Shown here piece after piece: positions 1-41,228 of a stretch of 64,000 bases of DNA (positions are counted from its first letter, which is position 1; each line of letters begins with the position of its first letter). The notes below the pieces were generated by a model. That model had not been told where the DNA came from. It saw only the letters and a program-made list of their open reading frames with translations, and ran no database searches. Source of the DNA: an uncultured Gammaproteobacteria bacterium (GTDB lineage Bacteria; Patescibacteriota; Microgenomatia; Levybacterales; GWA1-39-11); assembly GCA_964452165.1 (NCBI GenBank), contig CAYVKP010000001.1, forward strand, positions 1,715-65,714, given 5' to 3'. The position numbers and the translations under genes are program-made.

Positions 1-215
1 TCACCGGGTTCCCTACCCGCCACTATACAATTCACCTTACGGCAAATCGCTTTTATAGCAAGGTTTCCTATCCTTTGCAGATAGGTGGGTTTCCCCATTC
101 GGACACCAACGGATCAAAGAGTCATAGGTCTCTCCCCGTCGATTTTCGCGTACCTTGAAGCGTCCTTCTTCGGTCAATACTTCCTAGGCATCCACTAATG
201 ACATTAAAAATAGCG
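1..215 (-). rRNA. rrl: 23S rRNA, 5' end only (gene continues off the left edge)
   Basis: The reverse complement reads ...TTAGTGGATGCCTAGGAAG...GAAGAAGGACGC...GTCCGAATGGGGAAACCC...GGGAACCCGGTGA. These match the universally conserved 5'-domain blocks of bacterial 23S (E. coli GGTGGATGCCCTGGCA / GATGAAGGACG / TTTCCGAATGGGGAAACCC). The exact 5' end (about 205-225) is uncertain. Confidence 0.85.
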
Positions 216-513
216 TAGATTTTAAAAAATCAAAACTTATGTTCCGGCAAAGGACATAAGAAACTCGATCCCCGAGTTTTTGGCCTAGTTGTACTCAAAT
301 TAATATTTTACTCCGACTACTGCGTCGGAAATTATTTGAGAAAACAATATTTTATATATAAACCCCAATTGTCAATGTGCGGCTCTATAATATACTTTTG
401 TCTCGTCCCAAGTATATTGCCCTTGGCGACGAGGCAGAAATATACTAAATCTGCCTTAAAAATTAAGTGTGCTTGCACTGAGACCCACCTTTTCGAAGAA
501 AGGGTGAGTCGAA

Positions 514-19410: not shown

Positions 19411-20835
19411 TCACCTGCGGACAACCGTCGCGACCGCGGCACCGGAGATGAGGAGAACCACCATGACACCAGCAACGATGGTCCAGATCGAACTCGAGGA
19501 GGAGCTCATGGCAAGACCTGCGTCACCGGTAGCCGGTGGCTTGATCGAAGGCGTCAGCGGCGCGTCGGCGGTGTCCACGGGGCGTGGAGCCGGTTCGGAG
19601 CCGTTGTAGTAGCCGTTGATCGCGGGCGTGTCAGCGTCACCAGCGTTCGTCGTGGTGCGACCATCGAACGTCGAGGACGTAGGAATGGGCACGTTAGATG
19701 CCGAAGGTGACTGTGCGAAGGCATCGTTCGTCGAGAAGACGTTGCTACTGACGAGCGGAGCCGGACCCTGACCCGTTGCGTAGTCCTTGACGGTGACCGT
19801 GTCTGTCGCCTGAGCGTTCACAGGATCGCTAGACGCCGTGTCGGCCGTCGTGTTGGACTGGTTGACCACGTAGACAGCGATGCAGAAGCCGGAGGGGTTC
19901 TCAGGCGCAGCGCATGCGGTCTTGGAGGCGACAGCGACGATCAGCAGACACGTAGTGCCAGGTGACGCCGTAGCGCAGCCGTTGTTGGTCAGGTTGTTCG
20001 TGTTCTGGCCGGCCAGGTTCGGCAGGCTCAGGTAGTTCGCCAGGCCAGGGTTCGAAGCGCCGATGACGACGGCGTCGAGCTGGCTGAAGTTAAGCAGACC
20101 CTGTTGTACCACGGGAAGTACGCCGAGAATTCGGCCGTCGATCAGGACCGTCAAGTGAGCGTTCGGGATCGACACAGCGTCGCGGATGTCGAGAACAGCG
20201 CCGTCAGAGCCAGCGGCCGGGACGAGTGCGTTCGTGACGTCGTTGACAGAGTTGCCCCTATTCGTGGCCTTCTCGTCACCGGTGGGGCTCGTCTGGTATG
20301 CAGCGACCGTGATGGATGCCGGCAGGCCAGTAAGCCTTAACGTGGCGGTAAGGACGATGTTCGGCACGCCGAGGTAGTTCGGCAGGCTCAGGTTGTTACC
20401 CAGCGGGTAGTTGGACTCCTGGACGTTGGTCTTGCCGAGAGTCGTTCCGGGGGCCATGTTGGTGCCCGAGTTGGCCAGGTTGGCCAGGTTCAGTTGGCTA
20501 ACGACTACGTAGTCGATGCCACTGCTGGAGAACGTAACGACCTTTTCGGCGAGGAGGATACCTCCAGGATCCGATCCGGTGTAGACGTCGTGCAACGAGT
20601 TGTTCGTCTGGACGGTCGACGCCGCAATACCTGGGGTCGAGTCAGACGTTGCCGCGGCAGTAGGAGCCGGCGAAGTCCAGAAGGCCGTCAAGCCAAACAG
20701 AACTGCTACCGTTACTGCCAGGGCGAAGAGCTTTGCCAGCGACACGCGCGGAGGCGGGTCCTGATAGTTGGTTGTGTGTCTGGTTTTCACCGGACACTCC
20801 TTTCCTTGCAAGGAAATGCCTGCATTCTGCAGCAT
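19411..20835 (-). CDS. cell-surface protein with sortase-type C-terminal sorting signal
   Basis: C-terminus KPPATGDAG + hydrophobic helix IWTIVAGVMVVLLISGAAVATVV + RR tail. N-terminal signal/anchor LAKLFALAVTVAVLFGL. Internal NLSLPNYLG/NYLSLPNLAG repeats. The likely true start is GTG 20790 (AAGGAG 6 nt upstream). Confidence 0.75.
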   Translation of the reverse strand: MLQNAGISLQGKECPVKTRHTTNYQDPPPRVSLAKLFALAVTVAVLFGLTAFWTSPAPTAAATSDSTPGIAASTVQTNNSLHDVYTGSDPGGILLAEKVVTFSSSGIDYVVVSQLNLANLANSGTNMAPGTTLGKTNVQESNYPLGNNLSLPNYLGVPNIVLTATLRLTGLPASITVAAYQTSPTGDEKATNRGNSVNDVTNALVPAAGSDGAVLDIRDAVSIPNAHLTVLIDGRILGVLPVVQQGLLNFSQLDAVVIGASNPGLANYLSLPNLAGQNTNNLTNNGCATASPGTTCLLIVAVASKTACAAPENPSGFCIAVYVVNQSNTTADTASSDPVNAQATDTVTVKDYATGQGPAPLVSSNVFSTNDAFAQSPSASNVPIPTSSTFDGRTTTNAGDADTPAINGYYNGSEPAPRPVDTADAPLTPSIKPPATGDAGLAMSSSSSSIWTIVAGVMVVLLISGAAVATVVRR

Positions 20836-21562
20836 GGGTTGTGAAAAGAACGTTCCTCCCTCGCACCTTGCGAGATAGATCTTAGCTCTAAGCTATCCAC
20901 TTTGTGTACGGGTGTCTTTCCGGCGTCTGTCCTCGATGCCTCCCTCGGATGAGATCACTGCTGAGAACATCAAGGGCCAGGCCTTTCAGACTTTCCCGAA
21001 CTTTCGAGATCATCCCCTTTCAGTACTGCCTCTACGGTCAGTACTCTATTTCCAAGAGCTTGCCGAAGCGGGCGGCGGATCACAAGGCTACGCGGGGTGT
21101 ACCCGTTTCAGACTCGCTCTGAGAAAGCATTGGAGGGACGCCCCTTTTCCCTACGGACCAATCCGGCACTTTGCCGAACTTAAAATGTGTTGGGACGTCC
21201 CCTGATGATTAGCAGGTCTTCGATTCAAGCGAACACGTGCCCTGCACGTAATGCGTACAAATCCGCTCGTTTTCCGTTCAGCCGAATGCGTTGACGCACG
21301 GTTGATCTTTGACCTGCTCGTGGGAGCTCACCTCATCAGGGTGGCTTCTGGTAGTGATGCACCTTGCATCTCCTTTCTATTGATAGTAATCATCTCCGAC
21401 CCGAGCACCGAGAGCAGACTTTCGTCGCTGGCTCGACAACCGGAGAGAATCCCCTTAGTGGGAGACGTCCCATTTTTACTTACCCCACAAATGCCCGTCG
21501 TAAAGACAGGTTCCTCCTTTCTGAACTAGGAGCTGGACGCGGGACGTCTCCGGCGGCAATGG

Positions 21563-21750
21563 GTTTAGACAGTCAATACGAACCCTCCTTTCAGGGTTAT
21601 TCAGATAAGGCTCCGGGGAGTGAGCCTGGATCTGGCTGGTGGGAGGTAGCAGCAATAGACAGGGGGACAGGACCCTGTACTCGGCGCTTACTGCTACCAG
21701 ATGGTTTGGGAGGAACCCTACCATCCTTTTCCCAAGAACGTGCAAGTCCG
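21563..21750 (-). repeat. internal structured module, copy I
   Basis: Shares ordered blocks with copy II: ATAC, hairpin, AGATAAGG, hairpin, CCTGGATCTGGCTGG, GGTA..GCAG stem, AGATGG...CCATCCTTTYCCC, GTGCA(A)GTC. Confidence 0.6.
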
Positions 21751-22075
21751 AGGATTTCTCCTTGGACTGGGAATGGCTATGGAGACCATGGAGCGATGGG
21801 TCCAGAGGGCCTCCTGGTTGTTAGGGCGGAGCTCTTATCCGTGTCAGTGCGTTGTAGACATTTGCACTTTCCATGGCACCCTTCCTCTTTCGAGAATGGC
21901 TGGAGATCCGGCCTCGTACGAGTGGTCGCCTCTTATGAGGACTGAGCAGCTGGCTGCAACCAGACTTTTATATCTCAGCAACGACCATAGGCTGTGCTGC
22001 CATTAGGGCGGAGAGCGTGACCGGGTCACTATGCAAACGCGTCTGTTAAGAAGCGTCCACTTCCGGTTTACCTCC

Positions 22076-22250
22076 ACCATACTCGACTCCTCCCTTCGAG
22101 TCTTCCTAGATAAGGTCTCAGCACTAGACCTGGATCTGGCTGGCGGGGTACGGCAGCTGAAACACGAATGCGATCGTGACACCACTGCCTAAAGATGGGT
22201 TCCAAGCCATCCTTTCCCCGATGAAAAGTGCAGTCTCCTCACGATGAGAA
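22076..22250 (-). repeat. internal structured module, copy II
   Basis: See copy I. It lies about 510 nt away in the same orientation. Confidence 0.6.
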
Positions 22251-22522
22251 GACGTAGTTTTCCAGGAGGTGAAGGTCTCTTCACTTGCGCAGGCCACCAC
22301 GCGAAGAGAGCTTGCACCACTAGCCTGGTGAGTGTCGTCAACCGCCATACCACAGATCGTGGTAGTCCAGCACAAGGCGGAGACAAGACAACTCCTGGAC
22401 TCATCGAGATAGCAAGATGAGCCTAATTTGCGTCATTCAAGTGGAAAGCCATTCCACAAGAAAGTTATTTTGAATAACGAACAACAATAAAATAAAACTA
22501 AAATTTGATTTTTGTAAAATCC

Positions 22523-22546
22523 TTAAAAAAGACTCCTTCTGGAGTG
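22523..22546 (-). terminator. intrinsic terminator inside leader A (minus strand ACTCC-AGAA-GGAGT + T6)
   Basis: Hairpin at 22531-22545 with A6 on the plus strand at 22525-22530. Confidence 0.6.
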
Positions 22547-22720
22547 TGGGGTTGTGAATTCAGACAATAAACAAACTCGTAATTATTGCCTCAGCTCACA
22601 ACCGGACACAAGCGCTATGCAAATAAGCGCTGTCAAAAGAAGTTATGCGAACTGGTTGTTAAAGTGCAAAACTTTTTTGCCAGAACGCATGCATTTGCAT
22701 AAAGGCATTATGTTATGTAA
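22523..22720 (-). promoter_or_regulatory. leader A: conserved 5' leader/sRNA-like element downstream of promoter A
   Basis: Shares ATTACATA, TGCATGC and the TTTYGC.CTTTAACAACCRGTT.GCR.AACTTCTTT block with leader B. Additional hairpins are AGCGCT...AGCGCT and GGTTGTGA...TCACAACC. Confidence 0.5.
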
Positions 22721-22724
22721 TGCG

Positions 22725-22753
22725 AGTATATCTCTAAGGGAATTGCTTTTCAA
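22725..22753 (-). promoter_or_regulatory. promoter A: TTGAAA-N17-TATACT
   Basis: -10 box is the reverse complement of 22725-22730, and the -35 box the reverse complement of 22748-22753. The spacer is exactly 17 nt. Confidence 0.6.
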
Positions 22754-22904
22754 TTGGGCATTTACTGTAGCCTGAGGGGGATTGGGCGCGGGAATAGGAT
22801 ATAGATGTTTGTCTTCTTGAAGAAGACGATGCAGTTTGACTGCTACATCAGGTCCTAAACCCGCGTCCGCACCGGTTGCGAATTTATTTGTTGTAGATCA
22901 CCTC

Positions 22905-24398
22905 CTATCTTCTGGTAGGAACTTGTGTCGCAAGACACTGTCCTGTCGCGATGACGTAATAGTCGCAGTTAGTCGGCGGCTGAGGATTTCCGCTTGGCTT
23001 CTGCGGCTGGACAGGCTGTTGCTGGACCGAAGGACCCGAGTTGGCCTTGCCAACAATCTGGTACGTTGCGGTGTTGCTTACGAGCGGTGTGTTGCCGTCG
23101 TATAGCGTAATCCTAAGCGTATCAGTGCCAAGTGGCGGAGCAACATTGCCCGTCGATTGACAGCCTGTGCCGGCGTTCACGTATTTGCTGACTGGCCGAG
23201 TCGCCGGACTTCCGTCTTGGGGAGAGTCGGTAACAACTATCGTACCAGCCTGCGACACATTCCAGCAGAACTTACCACTCGTGTAGACCGTTATGACTGA
23301 TGGATCAGCCCAAACGCTCACAGTAGCGGCAGGTGGTGGAGGTGCCGGACGAGATGTCGGCGCGGGTGGTGGTGCCGCGGGCGCTTGGGGCGCAGGCGGA
23401 ACCTTGGTCGCTGTTGGCGGTGGCGCTTGAACCTGCTGAACTTGCGGAGCAGGCGTTGGCGGCGTGAACGACCCAATGTTGGGTGCTGGACCCGACTTTT
23501 TTTGAATCTCAACGGAAGTGGTGTCTACCGCGACTTTCACGTCGTCGACATATGCTACTGCAGCGATGCTGTAGATGCCAGGAATGACATTGTCGACGAT
23601 TGGAATCGTGGTGCAGGACTTTTCTTCCGAAGAATACCCATTCCACAACGGCGTTGGCTCCTCTCCTTCTCGGGAGAAAGTTGAAACTACTCTGTACCAG
23701 ATCTTCTTGTTGAGCTGGAAACAAAGAGTTGCGCGGTCTCCTTCGACGTAGACGTTCTTGCCGTCATTGAACCACACTTTTAGAGTGTAGCTGAACGGAG
23801 CAGGCGTTGATGTTGCCGTTGACGGTGCCGCCTTCACCTCAGGGTGATCGTAGTCATCCCTAAGTTGGGAGTGTAACCACCCCATCACAGGTGAAAAACG
23901 ACCCTTGGTGTCAATTATGTTCGCTGGAGAAATCTGTAGGCTGGTTTGCCATTTTTCACCAACGTTCTGCTGAACGAAGGTGATTTTTCCGTTCGCCACT
24001 CCGGTGACCAGCGCCACATGTCCCCAAGGCCACTCCTCGTTTTTCCCGAAAACGAGAATGTCTCCCGGAACAGGAGCAGTTGAAGAACCGTTTTCGTACA
24101 CGTTGGCGAAGTTAATGTTGTCCTTGTTTCCAAACATCTCAAATGCATTGAGACCCCAGTTGTAAGGACCCCATTCTCTCTCGCCCCAGTAACGCTGAAC
24201 GAATTCGACGCACTGCCACTCAATACCGTACTTTGACGAACGTCCGGAGTAGTAAAACGGGTCATCTCCGTTGGAGAAGATGTCCGTTTTGTCGTAGGTT
24301 CCAAGACGCTGTCCGAATGACGACGACGCCATAACGATACCTACGAAAATGAGGGGGCTCAATCCCAGAAGGACTGCAGCCCTGACTAACCTGATCAT
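22905..24398 (-). CDS. secreted CHAP-domain peptidoglycan amidase/endopeptidase with two beta-rich domains and Pro-rich linkers
   Basis: Signal peptide. CHAP catalytic pattern ...GIEWQCVEFVQRYW... (Cys) and ...WPWGHVALVTGV... (His). PAPQ/PPP linkers. Confidence 0.9.
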   Translation of the reverse strand: MIRLVRAAVLLGLSPLIFVGIVMASSSFGQRLGTYDKTDIFSNGDDPFYYSGRSSKYGIEWQCVEFVQRYWGEREWGPYNWGLNAFEMFGNKDNINFANVYENGSSTAPVPGDILVFGKNEEWPWGHVALVTGVANGKITFVQQNVGEKWQTSLQISPANIIDTKGRFSPVMGWLHSQLRDDYDHPEVKAAPSTATSTPAPFSYTLKVWFNDGKNVYVEGDRATLCFQLNKKIWYRVVSTFSREGEEPTPLWNGYSSEEKSCTTIPIVDNVIPGIYSIAAVAYVDDVKVAVDTTSVEIQKKSGPAPNIGSFTPPTPAPQVQQVQAPPPTATKVPPAPQAPAAPPPAPTSRPAPPPPAATVSVWADPSVITVYTSGKFCWNVSQAGTIVVTDSPQDGSPATRPVSKYVNAGTGCQSTGNVAPPLGTDTLRITLYDGNTPLVSNTATYQIVGKANSGPSVQQQPVQPQKPSGNPQPPTNCDYYVIATGQCLATQVPTRR

Positions 24399-24403
24399 GA
24401 CCT

Positions 24404-24973
24404 TTACTCCTTCTCGAATTTGAAGGTACTCAGGATTTGAGGTCCGATTCCCTTCATGATATTGAACGTAGCGGATTGGCTCGGCGAAATGCCGTAAAGC
24501 CTACTACCTTCTTGAATGAACCACCTGACGTAGACAGGGTGGACGTCCGGCTGTTCAAGCCAACGCTTCTGGTTAGTAAGTTCGAGACAGCTTCCGCTTG
24601 TCAGCGTGAAGGAACAAGGGGAGAAAACCAGGCGCTTGCCCGCATCCCCGAGTTGGTCTCTAACTGAAGCCTCTACGTCGTTAGCTGATGCCACCTTTTC
24701 GTATCGAATGACAGCAAAGCCTGCGTACAACTCGCCGTCGTTCTCAAATTCCAGGTGCAAGATGTTGCCCGGATCTGTCTCGTACGTATCCTTGTGGAGA
24801 TCGAGATCCTTGATCTTTCCCGAAAGCCACCCGTCCTGGAAGTCTTCCCAGTCCGCAGTACTTGCGGTAGCCGGAATGACTGGCAGGGTAGATACTGGCT
24901 TCTTGGTCGAGCCTCCGCATGCTGCGAGCAGTGGAAGCACTAGGAGCAGTAATACCGAGACTGTCTGTCTCAC
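24404..24973 (-). CDS. lipoprotein, hypothetical (possible partner/immunity protein of the CHAP enzyme)
   Basis: GTG start with a GGTAGAGG RBS. Lipobox LPLLAAC. The stop lies 5 nt before the CHAP gene start. Confidence 0.75.
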   Translation of the reverse strand: MRQTVSVLLLLVLPLLAACGGSTKKPVSTLPVIPATASTADWEDFQDGWLSGKIKDLDLHKDTYETDPGNILHLEFENDGELYAGFAVIRYEKVASANDVEASVRDQLGDAGKRLVFSPCSFTLTSGSCLELTNQKRWLEQPDVHPVYVRWFIQEGSRLYGISPSQSATFNIMKGIGPQILSTFKFEKE

Positions 24974-25310
24974 TTCGCACCTCTACCTTCCGTAGTCTAT
25001 TCGTGCTAGGTTGATATTCGACCCTGCTGGGTCTTGTGCTTTACCTTGTTTTATTTTCGTCGTCGTTCTCCTTTTTTAAATTCCGCTTCTTGGCGGAAAC
25101 TATCGTGCGTATTTTGTTTAGTCTTCTTTCGGCCGAATGCAAAATTCCGGACCCGAACTTTTTATCTGGTCAAGAACTTTGCATTCGATAAACACCTTGC
25201 TTTATAGTGCTTTCTGAAAGAAGTTTCGCAACCGGTTGTTAAAGAGCGAAAAACCTCGCGCTACAATGCATGCAAACGCACTAAGCCACGAGGAATTACT
25301 ATGTAATTGG
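24974..25310 (-). promoter_or_regulatory. leader B: about 335-nt structured 5' leader of the lipoprotein-CHAP operon
   Basis: The conserved 5' block is shared with leader A. Hairpins GAATGCAAA...TTTGCATTC and TTCCGC-CAAGAA-GCGGAA + TTT. Confidence 0.5.
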
Positions 25311-25339
25311 AGTATAACGCCGTCTGAGACGGTTTTCAA
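25311..25339 (-). promoter_or_regulatory. promoter B: TTGAAA-N17-TATACT
   Basis: -10 box is the reverse complement of 25311-25316, and the -35 box the reverse complement of 25334-25339. The hexamers and spacing are identical to promoter A. Confidence 0.6.
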
Positions 25340-25391
25340 CTTAACACTATAAGATTTCTTTGCCCGTATTTTGAGCGAATGTGAAGGCTAT

Positions 25392-25595
25392 CTACGTTTT
25401 ACCCCACGTTACGCGGTTCCATACCCTTTCATGTAGGTAATAAAAGACTAACTTCAAAATTCCTTCGGCGCCTCCAACTCCGATTGAAAGAAGTAATTTA
25501 CGCGTGAAGACGAAAACAACCGCTGCTGTAGTAAGTGAAGCAATAATTCTCCAAGTAATAGTTTTGGCAACGCTGCGGTGGCTCTCCTCCTTCAT
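25392..25595 (-). CDS. DUF2061-like small membrane protein
   Basis: 67 aa: KTITWRIIASLTT...YYLHERVWNRV pattern with two TM helices. Confidence 0.6.
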   Translation of the reverse strand: MKEESHRSVAKTITWRIIASLTTAAVVFVFTRKLLLSIGVGGAEGILKLVFYYLHERVWNRVTWGKT

Positions 25596-27811
25596 TAAAA
25601 TTGAGCTTTCCTACCGTAGCGCTCTTTGGAGTAACGAATAATCGCATCACGGTTTTCATTCTTAACATTTGGAAGCGGCAAGGTGGTTGCAGGGAAAGGC
25701 GCTGAGGTCATTCCGTCAATTGAAAGCTTTAAAACTATTTCAAATTTGCCAAGGGATACTAGGTCATTTTCGGTGTAAATCTCCGCATATTCCTTTGTAA
25801 GTCGCTCCGCATCTTGTGCACCGACAACAAAAGACATAAGAGTTCCGACATTTCCATAAATTGCATATTGAATCTCCTCCTCAAGCTGATCCGAATATTG
25901 ATTTGCTAAAGTCAAAGACAAGCGATATTTTCGTGCTTCGGATAGAATTTTAATGAAAGAGCTGGTTGCAAAATTTTGGAACTCATCAACGTATAGGAAA
26001 AAGTCACGTCTACTCTCCTCTTTCTGAAAAGATCTATTCATTGCAGCAAGCTGAATTTGGGTGATAACCATTGCTCCAAGAAGTGCCGCGTTATCCTCTC
26101 CTAATTTTCCCTGTGATAAATTAAGAATCAAGATTTTTCCTTCGTCCATTATCTCCTGAAGATTAATTGAAGAAGTGGGGTGGCCAATAATGTTACGGAT
26201 CATTTTTGATGAGACAAATTGTCCTACCTTGTTTTGGATTGGAGAAACAGCCTCAGCCTTTAGCTTATCCGGCATCCTGGCAAACTCAGCTTCCCAGAAA
26301 TTCTTGAGAACCGGGTCTGATAGTTTTGCAACAATTCTTGCACGAAACGCATCGTCTGATAATATTCTCAACGCGTCAATTAGAGTACCCTCCTCAACGT
26401 CGAGAAGGGTCAAAATAACATTTCGCAAGATATATTCAAGGCGCGGACCCCAAGATTCTCCATAAATCTTGTGGAAGATCGAGACAATTCCCGATGAGAC
26501 CAAGTCTTTATGCTGAGAATTACGAACCTCCAAAACGTTTAGCGAGAACGGGCGCTCGGCATCAAAAGGCTCCAGATAAACTACGTCATTGAGTCGTCTC
26601 TTTGGAATGTAATCCATAATAATCTCCGATAAATCTCCGTGAGGGTCAATGATTCCAATTCCGCGGTCTTTGCGAATATCGTCAATTGCCATGTTGGCAA
26701 TTAAAGTGGATTTTCCGGCTCCGGTTTTTCCAATAACGTAAACGTGTTTTCTCCTGTCGGGCGTTTTTATTCCAAAAATTGTTTCGGCATTTTTGAATTC
26801 GGTTTTTGCAAAAAAGTTGATATCCTTCTTTTCTTCTTCGGTAATGGCAGTTATAACCGGAAGATCTTCGGGTGGTTCTCCAAGAAGAGTCTTACCCCAA
26901 GCAATATTCTTAACCCCGGCAAGCAAGAATCCTGTGGGGTGCCAAATGGTTGCGAGTTCCTGAGCATTTAATATCTGTGTGCGCTTTTCAAGATAATAGG
27001 TTGAACGGTTTTTAATCCTTTCAATAAAGTTTTTCTTGCGGATAAGCGGACGCTTCAACTCAAATTCATTTCCGTCACCGTGAGAGAATATTCCAAACGT
27101 TCCCGCAAGATTTCGCAGATATAATCTTGGATCTGTATTTTCCGTACCTACAACTAGACGAATAAGCGCTTTTCCTCCTTGAAATGAGGCTTTTTGCATG
27201 ATTAAAAGTTGTTGTGGATCGCGGGCGTATCTGGCCGTTTCGGTACTATGTGCTTCAACCCCGGCCGTAGCAGGAGAAGTATGGGAGTCTGTTCCTGCAA
27301 GTATCATTTGCCCTGCTCGTTTTACGGCCCTTGCCTGCCAATCAAAAGACGCTGAGGTTACAAGAATCTCAACAGCCATTTTAACGTCTGCCGGCTGTTT
27401 TGCTAAGAATCCGATCAGCGCGCCTAAGGTATCTATGTCTTCAAAGTCGGCATAAGTCTTTGTTGGAAGATAAAATTCGTTATCCAGAACCAATTGACCT
27501 ACTGATATGTGCTTGCTGTCAAAAACTTTTGGCATAGGGTCCTCGGTTTTTTCAATTGATGAGGTTGGAAAAGAGGCTGCAATTTGGCTTGCGACAAAAG
27601 TCTCCTGATCTTCATCGGCCGTTACATAGAAGTAGACCGTTTGATTGATTAGAAAAATTTCGAATGAATAATAATGTGTTTTCATCCATGATCTTTTCCA
27701 GAAGGGAACATATGCATGCGATAAGCAGGAAGCAAAAATCTGTGCTGCTGAAGCAATTGGAGTCTCATCGTCCTTAGGATTTCTGACTAAAAGATGTACC
27801 AGTTTTCTCAT
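25595..27811 (-). CDS. TraD/VirD4-like (type IV secretion DNA-binding/coupling-type) P-loop ATPase
   Basis: Walker A GKTGAGKST and Walker B FFLYVDEFQNF. The C-terminal half resembles TraG/TraD-family ATPases. The N-terminal about 350 aa is uncharacterised. Confidence 0.75.
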   Translation of the reverse strand: MRKLVHLLVRNPKDDETPIASAAQIFASCLSHAYVPFWKRSWMKTHYYSFEIFLINQTVYFYVTADEDQETFVASQIAASFPTSSIEKTEDPMPKVFDSKHISVGQLVLDNEFYLPTKTYADFEDIDTLGALIGFLAKQPADVKMAVEILVTSASFDWQARAVKRAGQMILAGTDSHTSPATAGVEAHSTETARYARDPQQLLIMQKASFQGGKALIRLVVGTENTDPRLYLRNLAGTFGIFSHGDGNEFELKRPLIRKKNFIERIKNRSTYYLEKRTQILNAQELATIWHPTGFLLAGVKNIAWGKTLLGEPPEDLPVITAITEEEKKDINFFAKTEFKNAETIFGIKTPDRRKHVYVIGKTGAGKSTLIANMAIDDIRKDRGIGIIDPHGDLSEIIMDYIPKRRLNDVVYLEPFDAERPFSLNVLEVRNSQHKDLVSSGIVSIFHKIYGESWGPRLEYILRNVILTLLDVEEGTLIDALRILSDDAFRARIVAKLSDPVLKNFWEAEFARMPDKLKAEAVSPIQNKVGQFVSSKMIRNIIGHPTSSINLQEIMDEGKILILNLSQGKLGEDNAALLGAMVITQIQLAAMNRSFQKEESRRDFFLYVDEFQNFATSSFIKILSEARKYRLSLTLANQYSDQLEEEIQYAIYGNVGTLMSFVVGAQDAERLTKEYAEIYTENDLVSLGKFEIVLKLSIDGMTSAPFPATTLPLPNVKNENRDAIIRYSKERYGRKAQF

Positions 27812-39344: not shown

Positions 39345-39351
39345 TTAATTG

Positions 39352-39423
39352 CGCTCCCGGCGGGAATCGAACCCACATTAGAGGATCCGGAATCCCCCGT
39401 TCTATCCGTTGAACTACGGGAGC
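39352..39423 (-). tRNA. tRNA-Arg (anticodon CCG)
   Basis: The reverse complement GCTCCCGTAGTTCAACGGATAGAACGGGGGATTCCGGATCCTCTAATGTGGGTTCGATTCCCGCCGGGAGCG. Confidence 0.9.
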
Positions 39424-39451
39424 AAATGCGTCCGCGCCGAACAAAGTGAGG

Positions 39452-39536
39452 CGGAGGGTACAGGATTCGAACCTGTGAATCCCTTACAGGATCGAGTTTT
39501 CGAAACTCGTGCAATTGACCGCTATGCGAACCCTCC
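39452..39536 (-). tRNA. tRNA-Ser (anticodon CGA)
   Basis: The reverse complement GGAGGGTTCGCATAGCGGTCAATTGCACGAGTTTCGAAAACTCG + long variable arm + ACAGGTTCGAATCCTGTACCCTCCG. Confidence 0.9.
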
Positions 39537-39621
39537 AAGTTTCTCCCCAAAATATAAAATTTTTGGGGACCCCGGTTTTGTTTTGAGGCCTCCATTGCTT
39601 TCGCAATGGAGAGAAAATCTG

Positions 39622-39694
39622 CGTACCCGAGAGGAATCGAACCTCCAACCGCCTGGACCGCAACCAGGTGTTCTATCCATTGAACTACGGGTAC
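39622..39694 (-). tRNA. tRNA-Arg (anticodon GCG)
   Basis: The reverse complement GTACCCGTAGTTCAATGGATAGAACACCTGGTTGCGGTCCAGGCGGTTGGAGGTTCGATTCCTCTCGGGTACG. Confidence 0.85.
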
Positions 39695-39773
39695 AAAACT
39701 CTTTCCCAAAATCAAAGATTCTGGGGGCCCTGAGAGTGTATTTTAGATTATTTGAAGCTCTGAAGCAAACAAC

Positions 39774-40310
39774 TTAAGTCTTCTCGAGGGGAAAATTGTG
39801 AGAAAGCCAGTCGGCACTTTTCTCCATAAATGTGGGGTGAACGTATTCTCTATATGGAAGGTAGGGGACCAAAGTCTTGCGAATATGGTCGCGAGAAAGA
39901 TTACCAAGTGATATTTTAAGCTCACCCGGTAAAAGCGCCTGCGTACGAAGTGTCAATATATCTACTCCGTCCATTCTTTTAAAGTAAAAGTCGTACAATT
40001 CAGACCAGATATAAAAATAGTCCTCTACTTTTACTCCTTCCGTCGTGATTTTATAGTGAAAATCGTGTGGCGGGACAATTGATAGGGCAACCGATAAAAA
40101 GGCGAGCGCCAAAATGACAATCATAAGCTCATACTGACTGAAGAGAAAAAGAACGATCTCAAAAAGTAGCAACAATAATGTAACAGACATGAAGAATTGT
40201 TTGCCTTTTTTTCTAAATGGGCGTCCCGGAGCAGTCCAGGAAAGGAGAGTTCTTACATCGAATTCATGATCATGAGCACCTTCATGATGCTCGTGGACAG
40301 GCTGATCCAT
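39774..40310 (-). CDS. hypothetical membrane protein
   Basis: 178 aa with two central TM helices and a His-rich N-terminus. Confidence 0.6.
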   Translation of the reverse strand: MDQPVHEHHEGAHDHEFDVRTLLSWTAPGRPFRKKGKQFFMSVTLLLLLFEIVLFLFSQYELMIVILALAFLSVALSIVPPHDFHYKITTEGVKVEDYFYIWSELYDFYFKRMDGVDILTLRTQALLPGELKISLGNLSRDHIRKTLVPYLPYREYVHPTFMEKSADWLSHNFPLEKT

Positions 40311-40361
40311 ATACTTCTAATAATGCATTAACTCGCGCGAAAAATCAATCTTTAAGTGGGA

Positions 40362-41228
40362 TTAAAGCTCAAGAAGAGAGGTTGATTCACCGTTTTTAAC
40401 TTCCTTAAGATACTGAAGGTAGCGCTCGGTTGAAGAAAGTCTTTTGTGGCCTAGAATCTTTGATAAAAATACGATAGATATACCGTTCTTGAGGTGGTGA
40501 GCAACAAAAGTGTGGCGGAGATCATTTATCTTAGCGTTTTCAATTCCGGCTTTCCTGAAATATCGCTCTATGGCATCGCGAATATTACGTACCAGGAAAG
40601 GTTTACCGGTTTTTGTGACAAAAAGGTGGTCGTCTGGGGTCTGAGGTCTTGCGTCCATATATCGCCTTAAAGCTTCCTTTGCACGCTTATTTAGAGGAAC
40701 TTCTCGTGCGGCGTGTCCTTCATAAGTCCTTATTGCCAAAACCCCATCTTTTGCATCTTCAGAGCGTATGTTTGCAAGCTCCCCGATTCTTACACCTGTT
40801 TGAAGTAAAATTTCAACTATTGCAAAGATCCTTGGATCAGACGAGGCAGAATCACGAAGCGCTCTATATTCAAGAGGGGACAAAACCCTTGGGGGATTCA
40901 ACTCATACTTTGGGTGCTTCACCAGAAGTGAGGGGTCATCAGTGATAAATTCACTTACTTTGAGAAACCTATAGAATGTGCGCGTCGAGTTGAGTTTTCT
41001 TGAGACTGATTTTGGGGTGTATCCTTTCGTCTGCATAGAAACCAAGAAGGCCTGAATGTCGTCTGAGTTGACCTCGTGAACATTTTCCTTCTTAAGCTCA
41101 GCGAGAAAGCCAATAAGCTGATCAATATCCTTGCCATAGGCAAGAATTGTGGCAGAGGCTTTATTTTTTGACTTCAGGAATTCCTGGAAGCGGTCTTTAG
41201 CGTCTTTAATTCTAATTGCAGTTGCCAT
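40362..41228 (-). CDS. tyrosine recombinase (XerC/XerD-like)
   Basis: N-terminal SAM-like domain. Catalytic residues in ...RIGEL..., LRHTFVAHHL, GHKRLSSTERYLQ. Confidence 0.9.
   Translation of the reverse strand: MATAIRIKDAKDRFQEFLKSKNKASATILAYGKDIDQLIGFLAELKKENVHEVNSDDIQAFLVSMQTKGYTPKSVSRKLNSTRTFYRFLKVSEFITDDPSLLVKHPKYELNPPRVLSPLEYRALRDSASSDPRIFAIVEILLQTGVRIGELANIRSEDAKDGVLAIRTYEGHAAREVPLNKRAKEALRRYMDARPQTPDDHLFVTKTGKPFLVRNIRDAIERYFRKAGIENAKINDLRHTFVAHHLKNGISIVFLSKILGHKRLSSTERYLQYLKEVKNGESTSLLEL

Follow-up and report, generated by a model that had tools for sequence, protein, structure and literature searches.

A structured leader RNA, probably cis-regulatory, upstream of a lipoprotein and peptidoglycan hydrolase operon in Levybacteria-like bacteria

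The leader and its homologs

A short hairpin with a conserved loop occurs twice in the 64-kb stretch of contig CAYVKP010000001.1 analyzed here (the window, a term that denotes the whole stretch throughout). An earlier note had interpreted this element as either an RNA motif or a pair of operators for dimeric repressors. All genes around the hairpin are encoded on the minus strand, which is also the strand from which the noted motif was read. One of the two occurrences, copy B, belongs to a leader of ~330 nt that is located 5' of an operon encoding a lipoprotein and a CHAP-domain peptidoglycan hydrolase; the other one is denoted copy A (Table 1). We conclude that the flagged hairpin is helix P1 of a larger conserved, folded leader RNA with a core of ~135-205 nt from the inferred transcription start, and that this RNA probably is a cis-acting 5' leader with a regulatory function, ahead of the hydrolase operon in a narrow clade of ultra-small, Levybacteria-like bacteria of the Candidate Phyla Radiation (CPR). 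Between the two interpretations, RNA function is supported and favored, and the operator is weakened, because the extended 10-bp palindrome in the loop and the TGCATGCA stretch are not conserved, and the stem pairing is.

The two copies share the promoter hexamers as well as the spacing between them, and can be aligned from the -35 box to about +110, after which they diverge; the longest identical run in this alignment, CTTTAACAACC, falls within the 15-mer CTTTAACAACCRGTT, for which there are just two exact sites in the 64 kb (25230-25244 and 22650-22664). Scanning the window, with filters off, with a covariance model of the P1 block yielded 59.8 and 61.2 bits at the two copies, with the next best match at 14.7 bits (E value 0.31). 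Transcription would start near 25304 in copy B and near 22718 in copy A, placing P1 at approximately +55 to +85. The hairpin and its conserved loop are confirmed in both copies, with the shared loop sequence CUUUAACAACCRGUU, and so is the compensatory difference between the stems, where position 4 is U-A in copy A and C-G in copy B. The short closing stem that the earlier note had described does exist and consists of 6 bp, in excess of the 3-4 bp noted.

The same leader element was found in three further lineages, in each case upstream of the orthologous operon, namely contig L052, the L054/L055/L059 group and L067, with amino acid identities of the lipoprotein to that in the window of 57% (pairwise alignment), 39-41% and 43%, respectively. 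One of the leader-bearing lineages, that of the closest relatives, is classified at NCBI as Candidatus Levybacteria (Patescibacteria group, Microgenomates). The promoters of the L054 and L067 leaders have the form TTGCAA-16-TATACT. Between lineages, identity at third codon positions of the lipoprotein gene amounts to just 31-43%, the level of saturation. By comparison, the P1 alignment (~50 nt) has a mean column identity of 81%, and 12 of the 15 positions in the loop consensus, CUUURAYAACCRGUU, are invariant. Conservation of the P1 block despite the saturation of synonymous sites shows that this block is under purifying selection. The stems are UUUCGC/GCGAAA in copy B, UUUUGC/GCGAAA in L052, UCUUGC/GCGAGA in both L054 and L067, and UUUUGC/GCAUAA in copy A. 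L054 and L055, in which the third codon positions are 90% identical, show a single difference across the whole leader. Homologous leaders in which both the loop sequence and the stem pairing are lost, which the earlier note had named as evidence against the element, were not encountered in this collection.

The leader element is narrowly distributed. A pattern scan of genome contigs, with a pattern too strict for the L054-type loop, produced only scattered chance matches; the metagenome scan recovered a single true homolog, L059, along with 10 chance matches in coding regions; the scan of a viral collection gave chance matches only; and a BLAST search of phages and plasmids gave no match. Three distant CHAP homologs from unrelated genomes (L068, L069 and L070), themselves GC-rich, come without the leader.

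The operon has a distinct composition. The stretch at 19-25 kb of the window contains 52-59% GC, compared with ~40% elsewhere in the genome, and the lipoprotein-CHAP operon contains 51-55% GC in every related contig (L052, L054, L055 and L067), between AT-rich flanks with 30-40% GC. The GC content at third codon positions is 57-75% in the genes of the GC-rich island and operon vs 32-38% in neighboring genes, and this atypical composition is kept across the lineages with saturated synonymous sites. The lipoprotein family is tiny, with four clusters among 5.8 billion proteins, and an AlphaFold model of the lipoprotein built from a 4-sequence alignment was unusable (pLDDT 38). Otherwise, the window has the gene repertoire expected of a reduced CPR genome, with an ATP-dependent ligase, a TrwB/VirD4-like ATPase, DUF4012 and few regulators; the longest NCBI contig is 650 kb.

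Fold and covariation of the leader RNA

Immediately 3' of P1 begins one strand of an 8-bp long-range helix, denoted P-long (CUUCUUUC/GAAAGAAG in copy B, CGUCUUUC/GAAAGACG in L052), the 3' strand of which lies 40-110 nt downstream of the 5' strand; copy A has a U-A pair where the others have C-G. In copy B, the pair probability of P-long is 0.96-1.0, and it encloses two further hairpins, P2 and P3. L052 also has P3, copy A has a P3-like hairpin, and L054 and L067 carry P2 alone. Upstream of P1, every homologous leader contains a hairpin, P0, that has a different sequence in each. Independently computed minimum free energy (MFE) folds of copy B, L054 and L067 have the identical arrangement of P0, P1 and P-long enclosing P2 (sometimes P3), and those of L052 and copy A contain P-long with P2 and P3. 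In the four operon leaders, P-long has a pair probability of 0.84-1.0, compared with 0.59-0.89 in copy A.

The pairing is preserved where the sequence changes. In P1 taken alone, 23 of the 24 cells are paired vs 17-62% when the 3' partner is slid; alignment columns 10-36 switch from U-A to C-G in L054, with both sides changed, and in columns 12-34, U-A, C-G and U-G all occur. The same P1 stem is independently predicted by RNAalifold. For P-long alone, pairing is complete (100%), with 2 compensatory pairs. When P1 and P-long are considered jointly in five sequences, 98.6% of the cells are paired vs 45-62% for slid partners, three pairs are changed on both sides, and the covariation score was reached by only 2 of 500 shuffles.

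The thermodynamic evidence points in the same direction. Compared with dinucleotide shuffles, the core folds have z-scores of -5.8 in copy B, -5.4 in copy A, -6.6 in L052 and -3.2 in L054. The sense strand of leader B folds at -68.1 kcal/mol vs -51.4 kcal/mol for the antisense strand, a difference of ~17 kcal/mol in favor of sense, and the U-G pairs in P1 and P-long fit the sense strand only, turning into C-A mismatches on the other strand. The leader displays the generic hallmark of riboswitches, a structured domain of a 5' untranslated region with covariation support, in this case from only four independent lineages.

A search of the whole window against Rfam 15 at the gathering threshold detected only tRNAs and a 23S rRNA fragment. 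At E<=10, the region 20800-25700 gave one spurious miRNA match, and the L052, L055 and L067 contigs gave four weak matches, all far below the gathering scores; those overlapping leaders are at chance level (MIR7696 in L052 and, in antisense orientation, icd-II in L055). A literature search on riboswitches of the CPR found nothing relevant. The leader RNA is previously undescribed and has no Rfam family, and it probably belongs to the known class of structured cis-regulatory leaders.

Table 1. Features of the two leader copies and of the associated operon in the window
Feature	Position (strand)	Description
Predicted promoter, copy B	25339-25311 (-)	-35 TTGAAA 25339-25334, 17-nt spacer, -10 TATACT 25316-25311; 10/12 consensus matches
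P0 hairpin, leader B	25293-25254 (-)	TGCATGCA stretch in apical stem; MFE structure equals centroid
P1, copy B	25251-25224 (-)	5' arm UUUCGC 25251-25246; loop UCUUUAACAACCGGUU 25245-25230 (16 nt); 3' arm GCGAAA 25229-25224
P-long 5' strand, copy B	25216-25223 (-)	CUUCUUUC, directly 3' of P1
P2, copy B	25212-25190 (-)	inside P-long
P3, copy B	25188-25133 (-)	inside P-long
P-long 3' strand, copy B	25123-25130 (-)	GAAAGAAG
AAGGAG tract, Shine-Dalgarno-like	25068-25073 (-)	no start codon behind it; candidate P-alt partner of P1 5' arm and loop CUCUUU
AUCAACC	25009-25015 (-)	second conserved CAACC-type motif, 33-45 nt upstream of lipoprotein start codon
Lipoprotein gene	24973-24404 (-)	operon behind leader B; 189 aa, lipobox LLAAC
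CHAP peptidoglycan hydrolase gene	24398-22905 (-)	operon behind leader B; 497 aa
Predicted promoter, copy A	22753-22725 (-)	TTGAAA-17-TATACT, hexamers and spacing identical to copy B
P1, copy A	22671-22643 (-)	5' arm UUUUGC 22671-22666; loop ACUUUAACAACCAGUUC 22665-22649 (17 nt); 3' arm GCAUAA 22648-22643
P-long 5' strand, copy A	22635-22642 (-)	CUUCUUUU; partner AGAAGGAG
Terminator-like hairpin, copy A	22545-22525 (-)	ACUCC-AGAA-GGAGU 22545-22532, then U6 22530-22525

Regulatory interpretation and alternatives

In the mechanism that we propose for the cis-acting leader, the large invariant loop of P1 would serve as the recognition surface for a trans-acting factor, somewhat more likely an RNA-binding protein than a small ligand. 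The 6-mer AAGGAG is common to all the leaders, 115-170 nt downstream of the loop; this AAGGAG(G) tract, which resembles a Shine-Dalgarno (SD) sequence and is not followed by a start codon, precedes the real, weak ribosome-binding site (RBS), with its GTG or TTG start, by 75-110 nt. The pyrimidine-rich 5' half of P1 (UYUUGC-UCUUU) may pair with the UYAAGGAG(G) tract instead of its own 3' arm, forming an alternative helix, P-alt. A factor bound to the invariant loop would stabilize P1, so that loop occupancy would decide between P1 and P-alt and thereby set downstream expression. The two conformers differ by only 0.2-2.5 kcal/mol in copy B, L052, L054 and L067; P-alt comprises 12-13 bp in L052 and L054, and in L054, where the 5' arm of P1 has C in place of U, the 3' arm and the purine tract both carry the matching change. 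The switch, the trans-acting factor and the sign of the regulation are parts of this model that we infer. Short motifs shared by the leaders hint at repeated recognition sites: six 7-mers are common to copy B, L052 and L054 (0.17 expected), among the shared motifs AUCAACC resembles the core of the P1 loop, AYAACC, and UUUGCAU recurs in the P0, P2 and P3 regions. On sequence grounds, both UUUGCAU and AUCAACC could be such sites.

Several observations weigh against this interpretation. P1 by itself is marginal: its consensus energy is about -4 kcal/mol, its covariation score alone was reached by 103 of 500 shuffles, its pair probability drops to ~0 in L052, L054 and L067 once a longer context is folded, and thermodynamic folding predicts it only weakly in copy A, where the stem contains a U-U mismatch. 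P-alt does no better than shuffles in copy B and is poor in copy A, and a pyrimidine tract pairs with any purine tract. The transcription starts and the termination at 22525-22530 come from consensus scans that are not significant (5 promoter-like sites vs 3.5 expected). A simple hairpin-loop model does not explain the self-complementary core of the loop, AACCGGUU, which is found in three of the four lineages. The independent lineages number only four, with L054 and L067 close to each other, and the analysis turned up no candidate for the binding protein or the ligand.

Conceivably, the leader does not switch at all but belongs to highly expressed envelope genes whose mRNA it stabilizes, marks for processing or helps to load with ribosomes, with the loop making contact, for example, with an RNase or the ribosome. 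The near-consensus, strong promoters, the stable structures near the 5' end, the strong SD-like AAGGAGG that lacks a start codon and precedes weak RBSs with GTG or TTG starts, and the GC-rich operon with an atypical codon composition kept in relatives would all be compatible with such a role. We nevertheless regard it as unlikely given that stabilizers do not usually need a 15-nt loop in which 12 positions stay invariant while divergence is saturated, and that the overlap between the terminator and P-long in copy A, together with the nearly isoenergetic P1 and P-alt, suggests conditional structures.

The operator interpretation posits a dimeric transcription factor that binds the palindromic core of the loop (CAACCGGTTG or AACCGGTT) in double-stranded DNA and forms a roadblock downstream of the promoter, with TGCATGCA as a second operator. 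The perfect 10-bp palindrome reported in the earlier note, CAACCGGTTG, is indeed there in copy B, accompanied by an imperfect inverted repeat of 14 nt, the copy B, L052, L054 and L067 leaders have all retained the 8-bp palindrome AACCGGTT, and the combination of promoter and block common to both copies is reminiscent of a regulon. However, across the homologous sites, the inverted-repeat symmetry itself is not conserved: the 10-bp palindrome is unique to copy B and broken in three of the four lineages, L052 and L054 having a 1-nt insertion and copy A a G-to-A substitution, and the AACCGGTT core survives in just three of the four lineages with no symmetry beyond it. Conservation around this core is asymmetric, with an invariant left flank, CTTTRAY, and a right flank that is the variable, covarying stem arm. 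The second palindrome, TGCATGCA, which had been described for both copies, holds for copy B only, because copy A has TGCATGCG, a 7/8 match, and it is missing also from L054 and L067; the stretch contributes to the stem of P0 in copies A and B alike. Furthermore, the site is located at about +55 to +85, inside the transcribed region, which is atypical for an operator, the strand-specific U-G pairs and the energy gap between sense and antisense point to RNA, and no DNA-binding regulator was found among the annotated open reading frames (ORFs) of the window that were scanned. Taken together, these features make an operator very unlikely.

Direct recognition between RNAs appears similarly improbable. 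Under this scenario, the self-complementary loop would mediate kissing or antisense pairing, for instance, of a terminated copy A RNA with the hydrolase mRNA leader, or pairing with a different small RNA, and neither a protein nor a ligand would be required. The 8-nt self-complementary core in three of the four lineages lends some credence to this possibility, as do the predicted promoter and terminator of copy A and the sequence 5'-CCGGUUGU-3' that forms part of its P3-like hairpin (5' arm) and, as read from the sequences by eye, is complementary to ACAACCGG of the copy B loop. However, the loop of copy A itself, AACCAGUU, is not self-complementary, its CCGGUUGU is sequestered in its own hairpin, pairing in cis with UUCACAACC, and the L052, L054 and L067 contigs, which are short, show no second copy. 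The intramolecular partners of the loop differ in register from lineage to lineage, with a G-to-A change in L067 breaking the L054-type pairing; the loop of copy A was folded against its own GGUUGU only. As a separate observation, CAACC/GGUUG elements recur in all the leaders.

Four other candidates were rejected: a leader peptide (a 21-codon ORF across P1 in copy A that has no RBS and, owing to an indel frameshift and an early stop, no counterpart in copy B); an upstream ORF behind AAGGAGG (no canonical start, and mostly non-synonymous substitutions among L054, L055 and L067); a pseudoknot joining the P1 loop to sequence further downstream (the same lineage-dependent register and the same L067 change that breaks the L054 pairing); and an antisense or internal promoter in the loop (TTGACA-like, with no conserved -10 hexamer at the proper spacing, as judged by eye).

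Among known systems, riboswitch-like or protein-binding leaders of cell-wall hydrolase genes share the most with the structured leader in function. The c-di-AMP riboswitch (ydaO-yuaA), one such leader, is likewise a long structured 5' leader before peptidoglycan hydrolase genes, in which conserved unpaired nucleotides are held by variable helices and the expression platforms vary. In contrast to ydaO-yuaA, the leader matches neither RF00379 nor any other Rfam model at E<=10 beyond chance level, and the pseudo-twofold architecture and ACGGGG/CCCA-type blocks of ydaO are absent. The leader resembles ydaO in function but is not a member of that family. The leader elements to which specialized NusG paralogs are recruited (ops for RfaH, a leader hairpin for LoaP) offer another possible parallel, a short invariant element in the long 5' leader of cell-surface genes, tens of nucleotides downstream of the start site. 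The ops element of RfaH is a 12-nt element of non-template DNA that is not known to have covarying flanks. The flanks of the leader element, unlike those of ops, covary as an RNA stem, and no NusG paralog was seen among the window ORFs scanned.

A third parallel involves copy A. In the EutV/ANTAR system with EutX/Rli55, and in GlmY/GlmZ with RapZ, a leader hairpin is duplicated in a separately promoted and terminated transcript; similarly, copies A and B share the promoter type, the P1 loop and the overall fold, and copy A could titrate the same factor. Unlike EutX and the ANTAR targets, the element has a 6-bp stem with a 16-17 nt loop, which is not an ANTAR hexaloop pair, and the termination of copy A is a prediction only. 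A far-reaching extension of this comparison, which we put forward as speculation that is unlikely to hold, is that the leaders act as aptamers or protein-binding domains in a new lineage-restricted class of regulatory RNA in the CPR that senses an envelope signal and controls the hydrolase operon, with copy A as a paralogous decoy or competitor and the 1.6-kb region downstream of copy A (see below) perhaps a co-controlled non-coding RNA.

To our knowledge, regulation in CPR bacteria (Patescibacteria) is almost unknown; their genomes are tiny, with few recognizable regulators, and very few regulatory RNAs have been described. The leader, which is under strong purifying selection, provides a concrete handle on the control of envelope remodeling in CPR cells, and the peptidoglycan hydrolase is of potential relevance to cell division or to the interaction of these episymbiotic bacteria with host cells. 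If confirmed, the leader and its terminated paralog would be a compact example of RNA mimicry; the narrow distribution limits the general importance of the element.

Copy A and the surroundings of the locus

Copy A retains the promoter, P0, P1, P2, the P3-like hairpin and P-long, and has a predicted terminator after ~190 nt, where ACTCCAGAAGGAGT is followed by CTTTTTT; the stem of this terminator-like hairpin is just 5 bp long. The segment AGAAGGAG (22540-22533) is at once the 3' strand of P-long and the loop plus 3' arm of the terminator hairpin, and the two predictions for copy A differ accordingly in that the MFE structure uses P-long and the centroid uses the terminator hairpin. Whichever conformation forms, a helix lies ahead of the U tract, so that the transcript of copy A most likely ends there. 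Copy A would then be a stand-alone small RNA of ~190 nt that carries the same loop and is a possible decoy; alternatively, it would be an attenuator for the downstream region.

Beyond the terminator of copy A, ~100 AT-rich bases are followed by 1.6 kb of GC-rich sequence that lacks an ORF and then by the gene of a 474-aa secreted protein. The GC-rich region (20836-22420, ~1.6 kb, 54% GC, sense strand presumed minus) between copy A and this surface-protein gene contains all three kinds of stop codons in all six frames, and its longest ORF, 193 aa on the plus strand, has a junk translation. Searches with this region gave no Pfam or Rfam match, no paralog in the window, and no phage or plasmid match. 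A recoded or frameshifted gene was considered and rejected in view of the stops in six frames, the lack of a Pfam match and the lack of paralogy in the window. On the minus strand, GAAA occurs ~16 times (counted by eye) vs ~5 expected (an estimate from base composition), and the fold z-scores range from -1.9 to -3.3 on both strands. The region may be what remains of a decayed gene, or else a very long 5' untranslated region or a large non-coding RNA. The 474-aa protein (19411-20835, minus strand; 61% GC) has no Pfam match, shows repeated NYLSLPN-type motifs, and ends with PPATGD, a hydrophobic segment and RR, a C-terminus that resembles a sortase-type membrane anchor; the contig index holds no exact copy of it.

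Leader B is immediately preceded (25392-27811, minus strand) by genes for a TrwB/VirD4-like coupling ATPase of 738 aa and for a small membrane protein with DUF2061. In the L052 contig, the upstream gene (positions 3-497) apparently ends in a similar C-terminus, as judged by eye on unaligned sequences, with no DUF2061 gene.

Elsewhere in the window, the 5' end of a 23S rRNA gene at 1-218 (minus strand) is preceded by tRNA-Ala at 514-587. A 16S rRNA gene was not detected anywhere in the window, so that it is not immediately upstream of tRNA-Ala and 23S here. At 39351-41228 (minus strand), three tRNA genes (Arg, Ser, Arg) are clustered ~670 nt away from a gene for a tyrosine recombinase of the phage-integrase family (XerC/D-like), with one further ORF in between.

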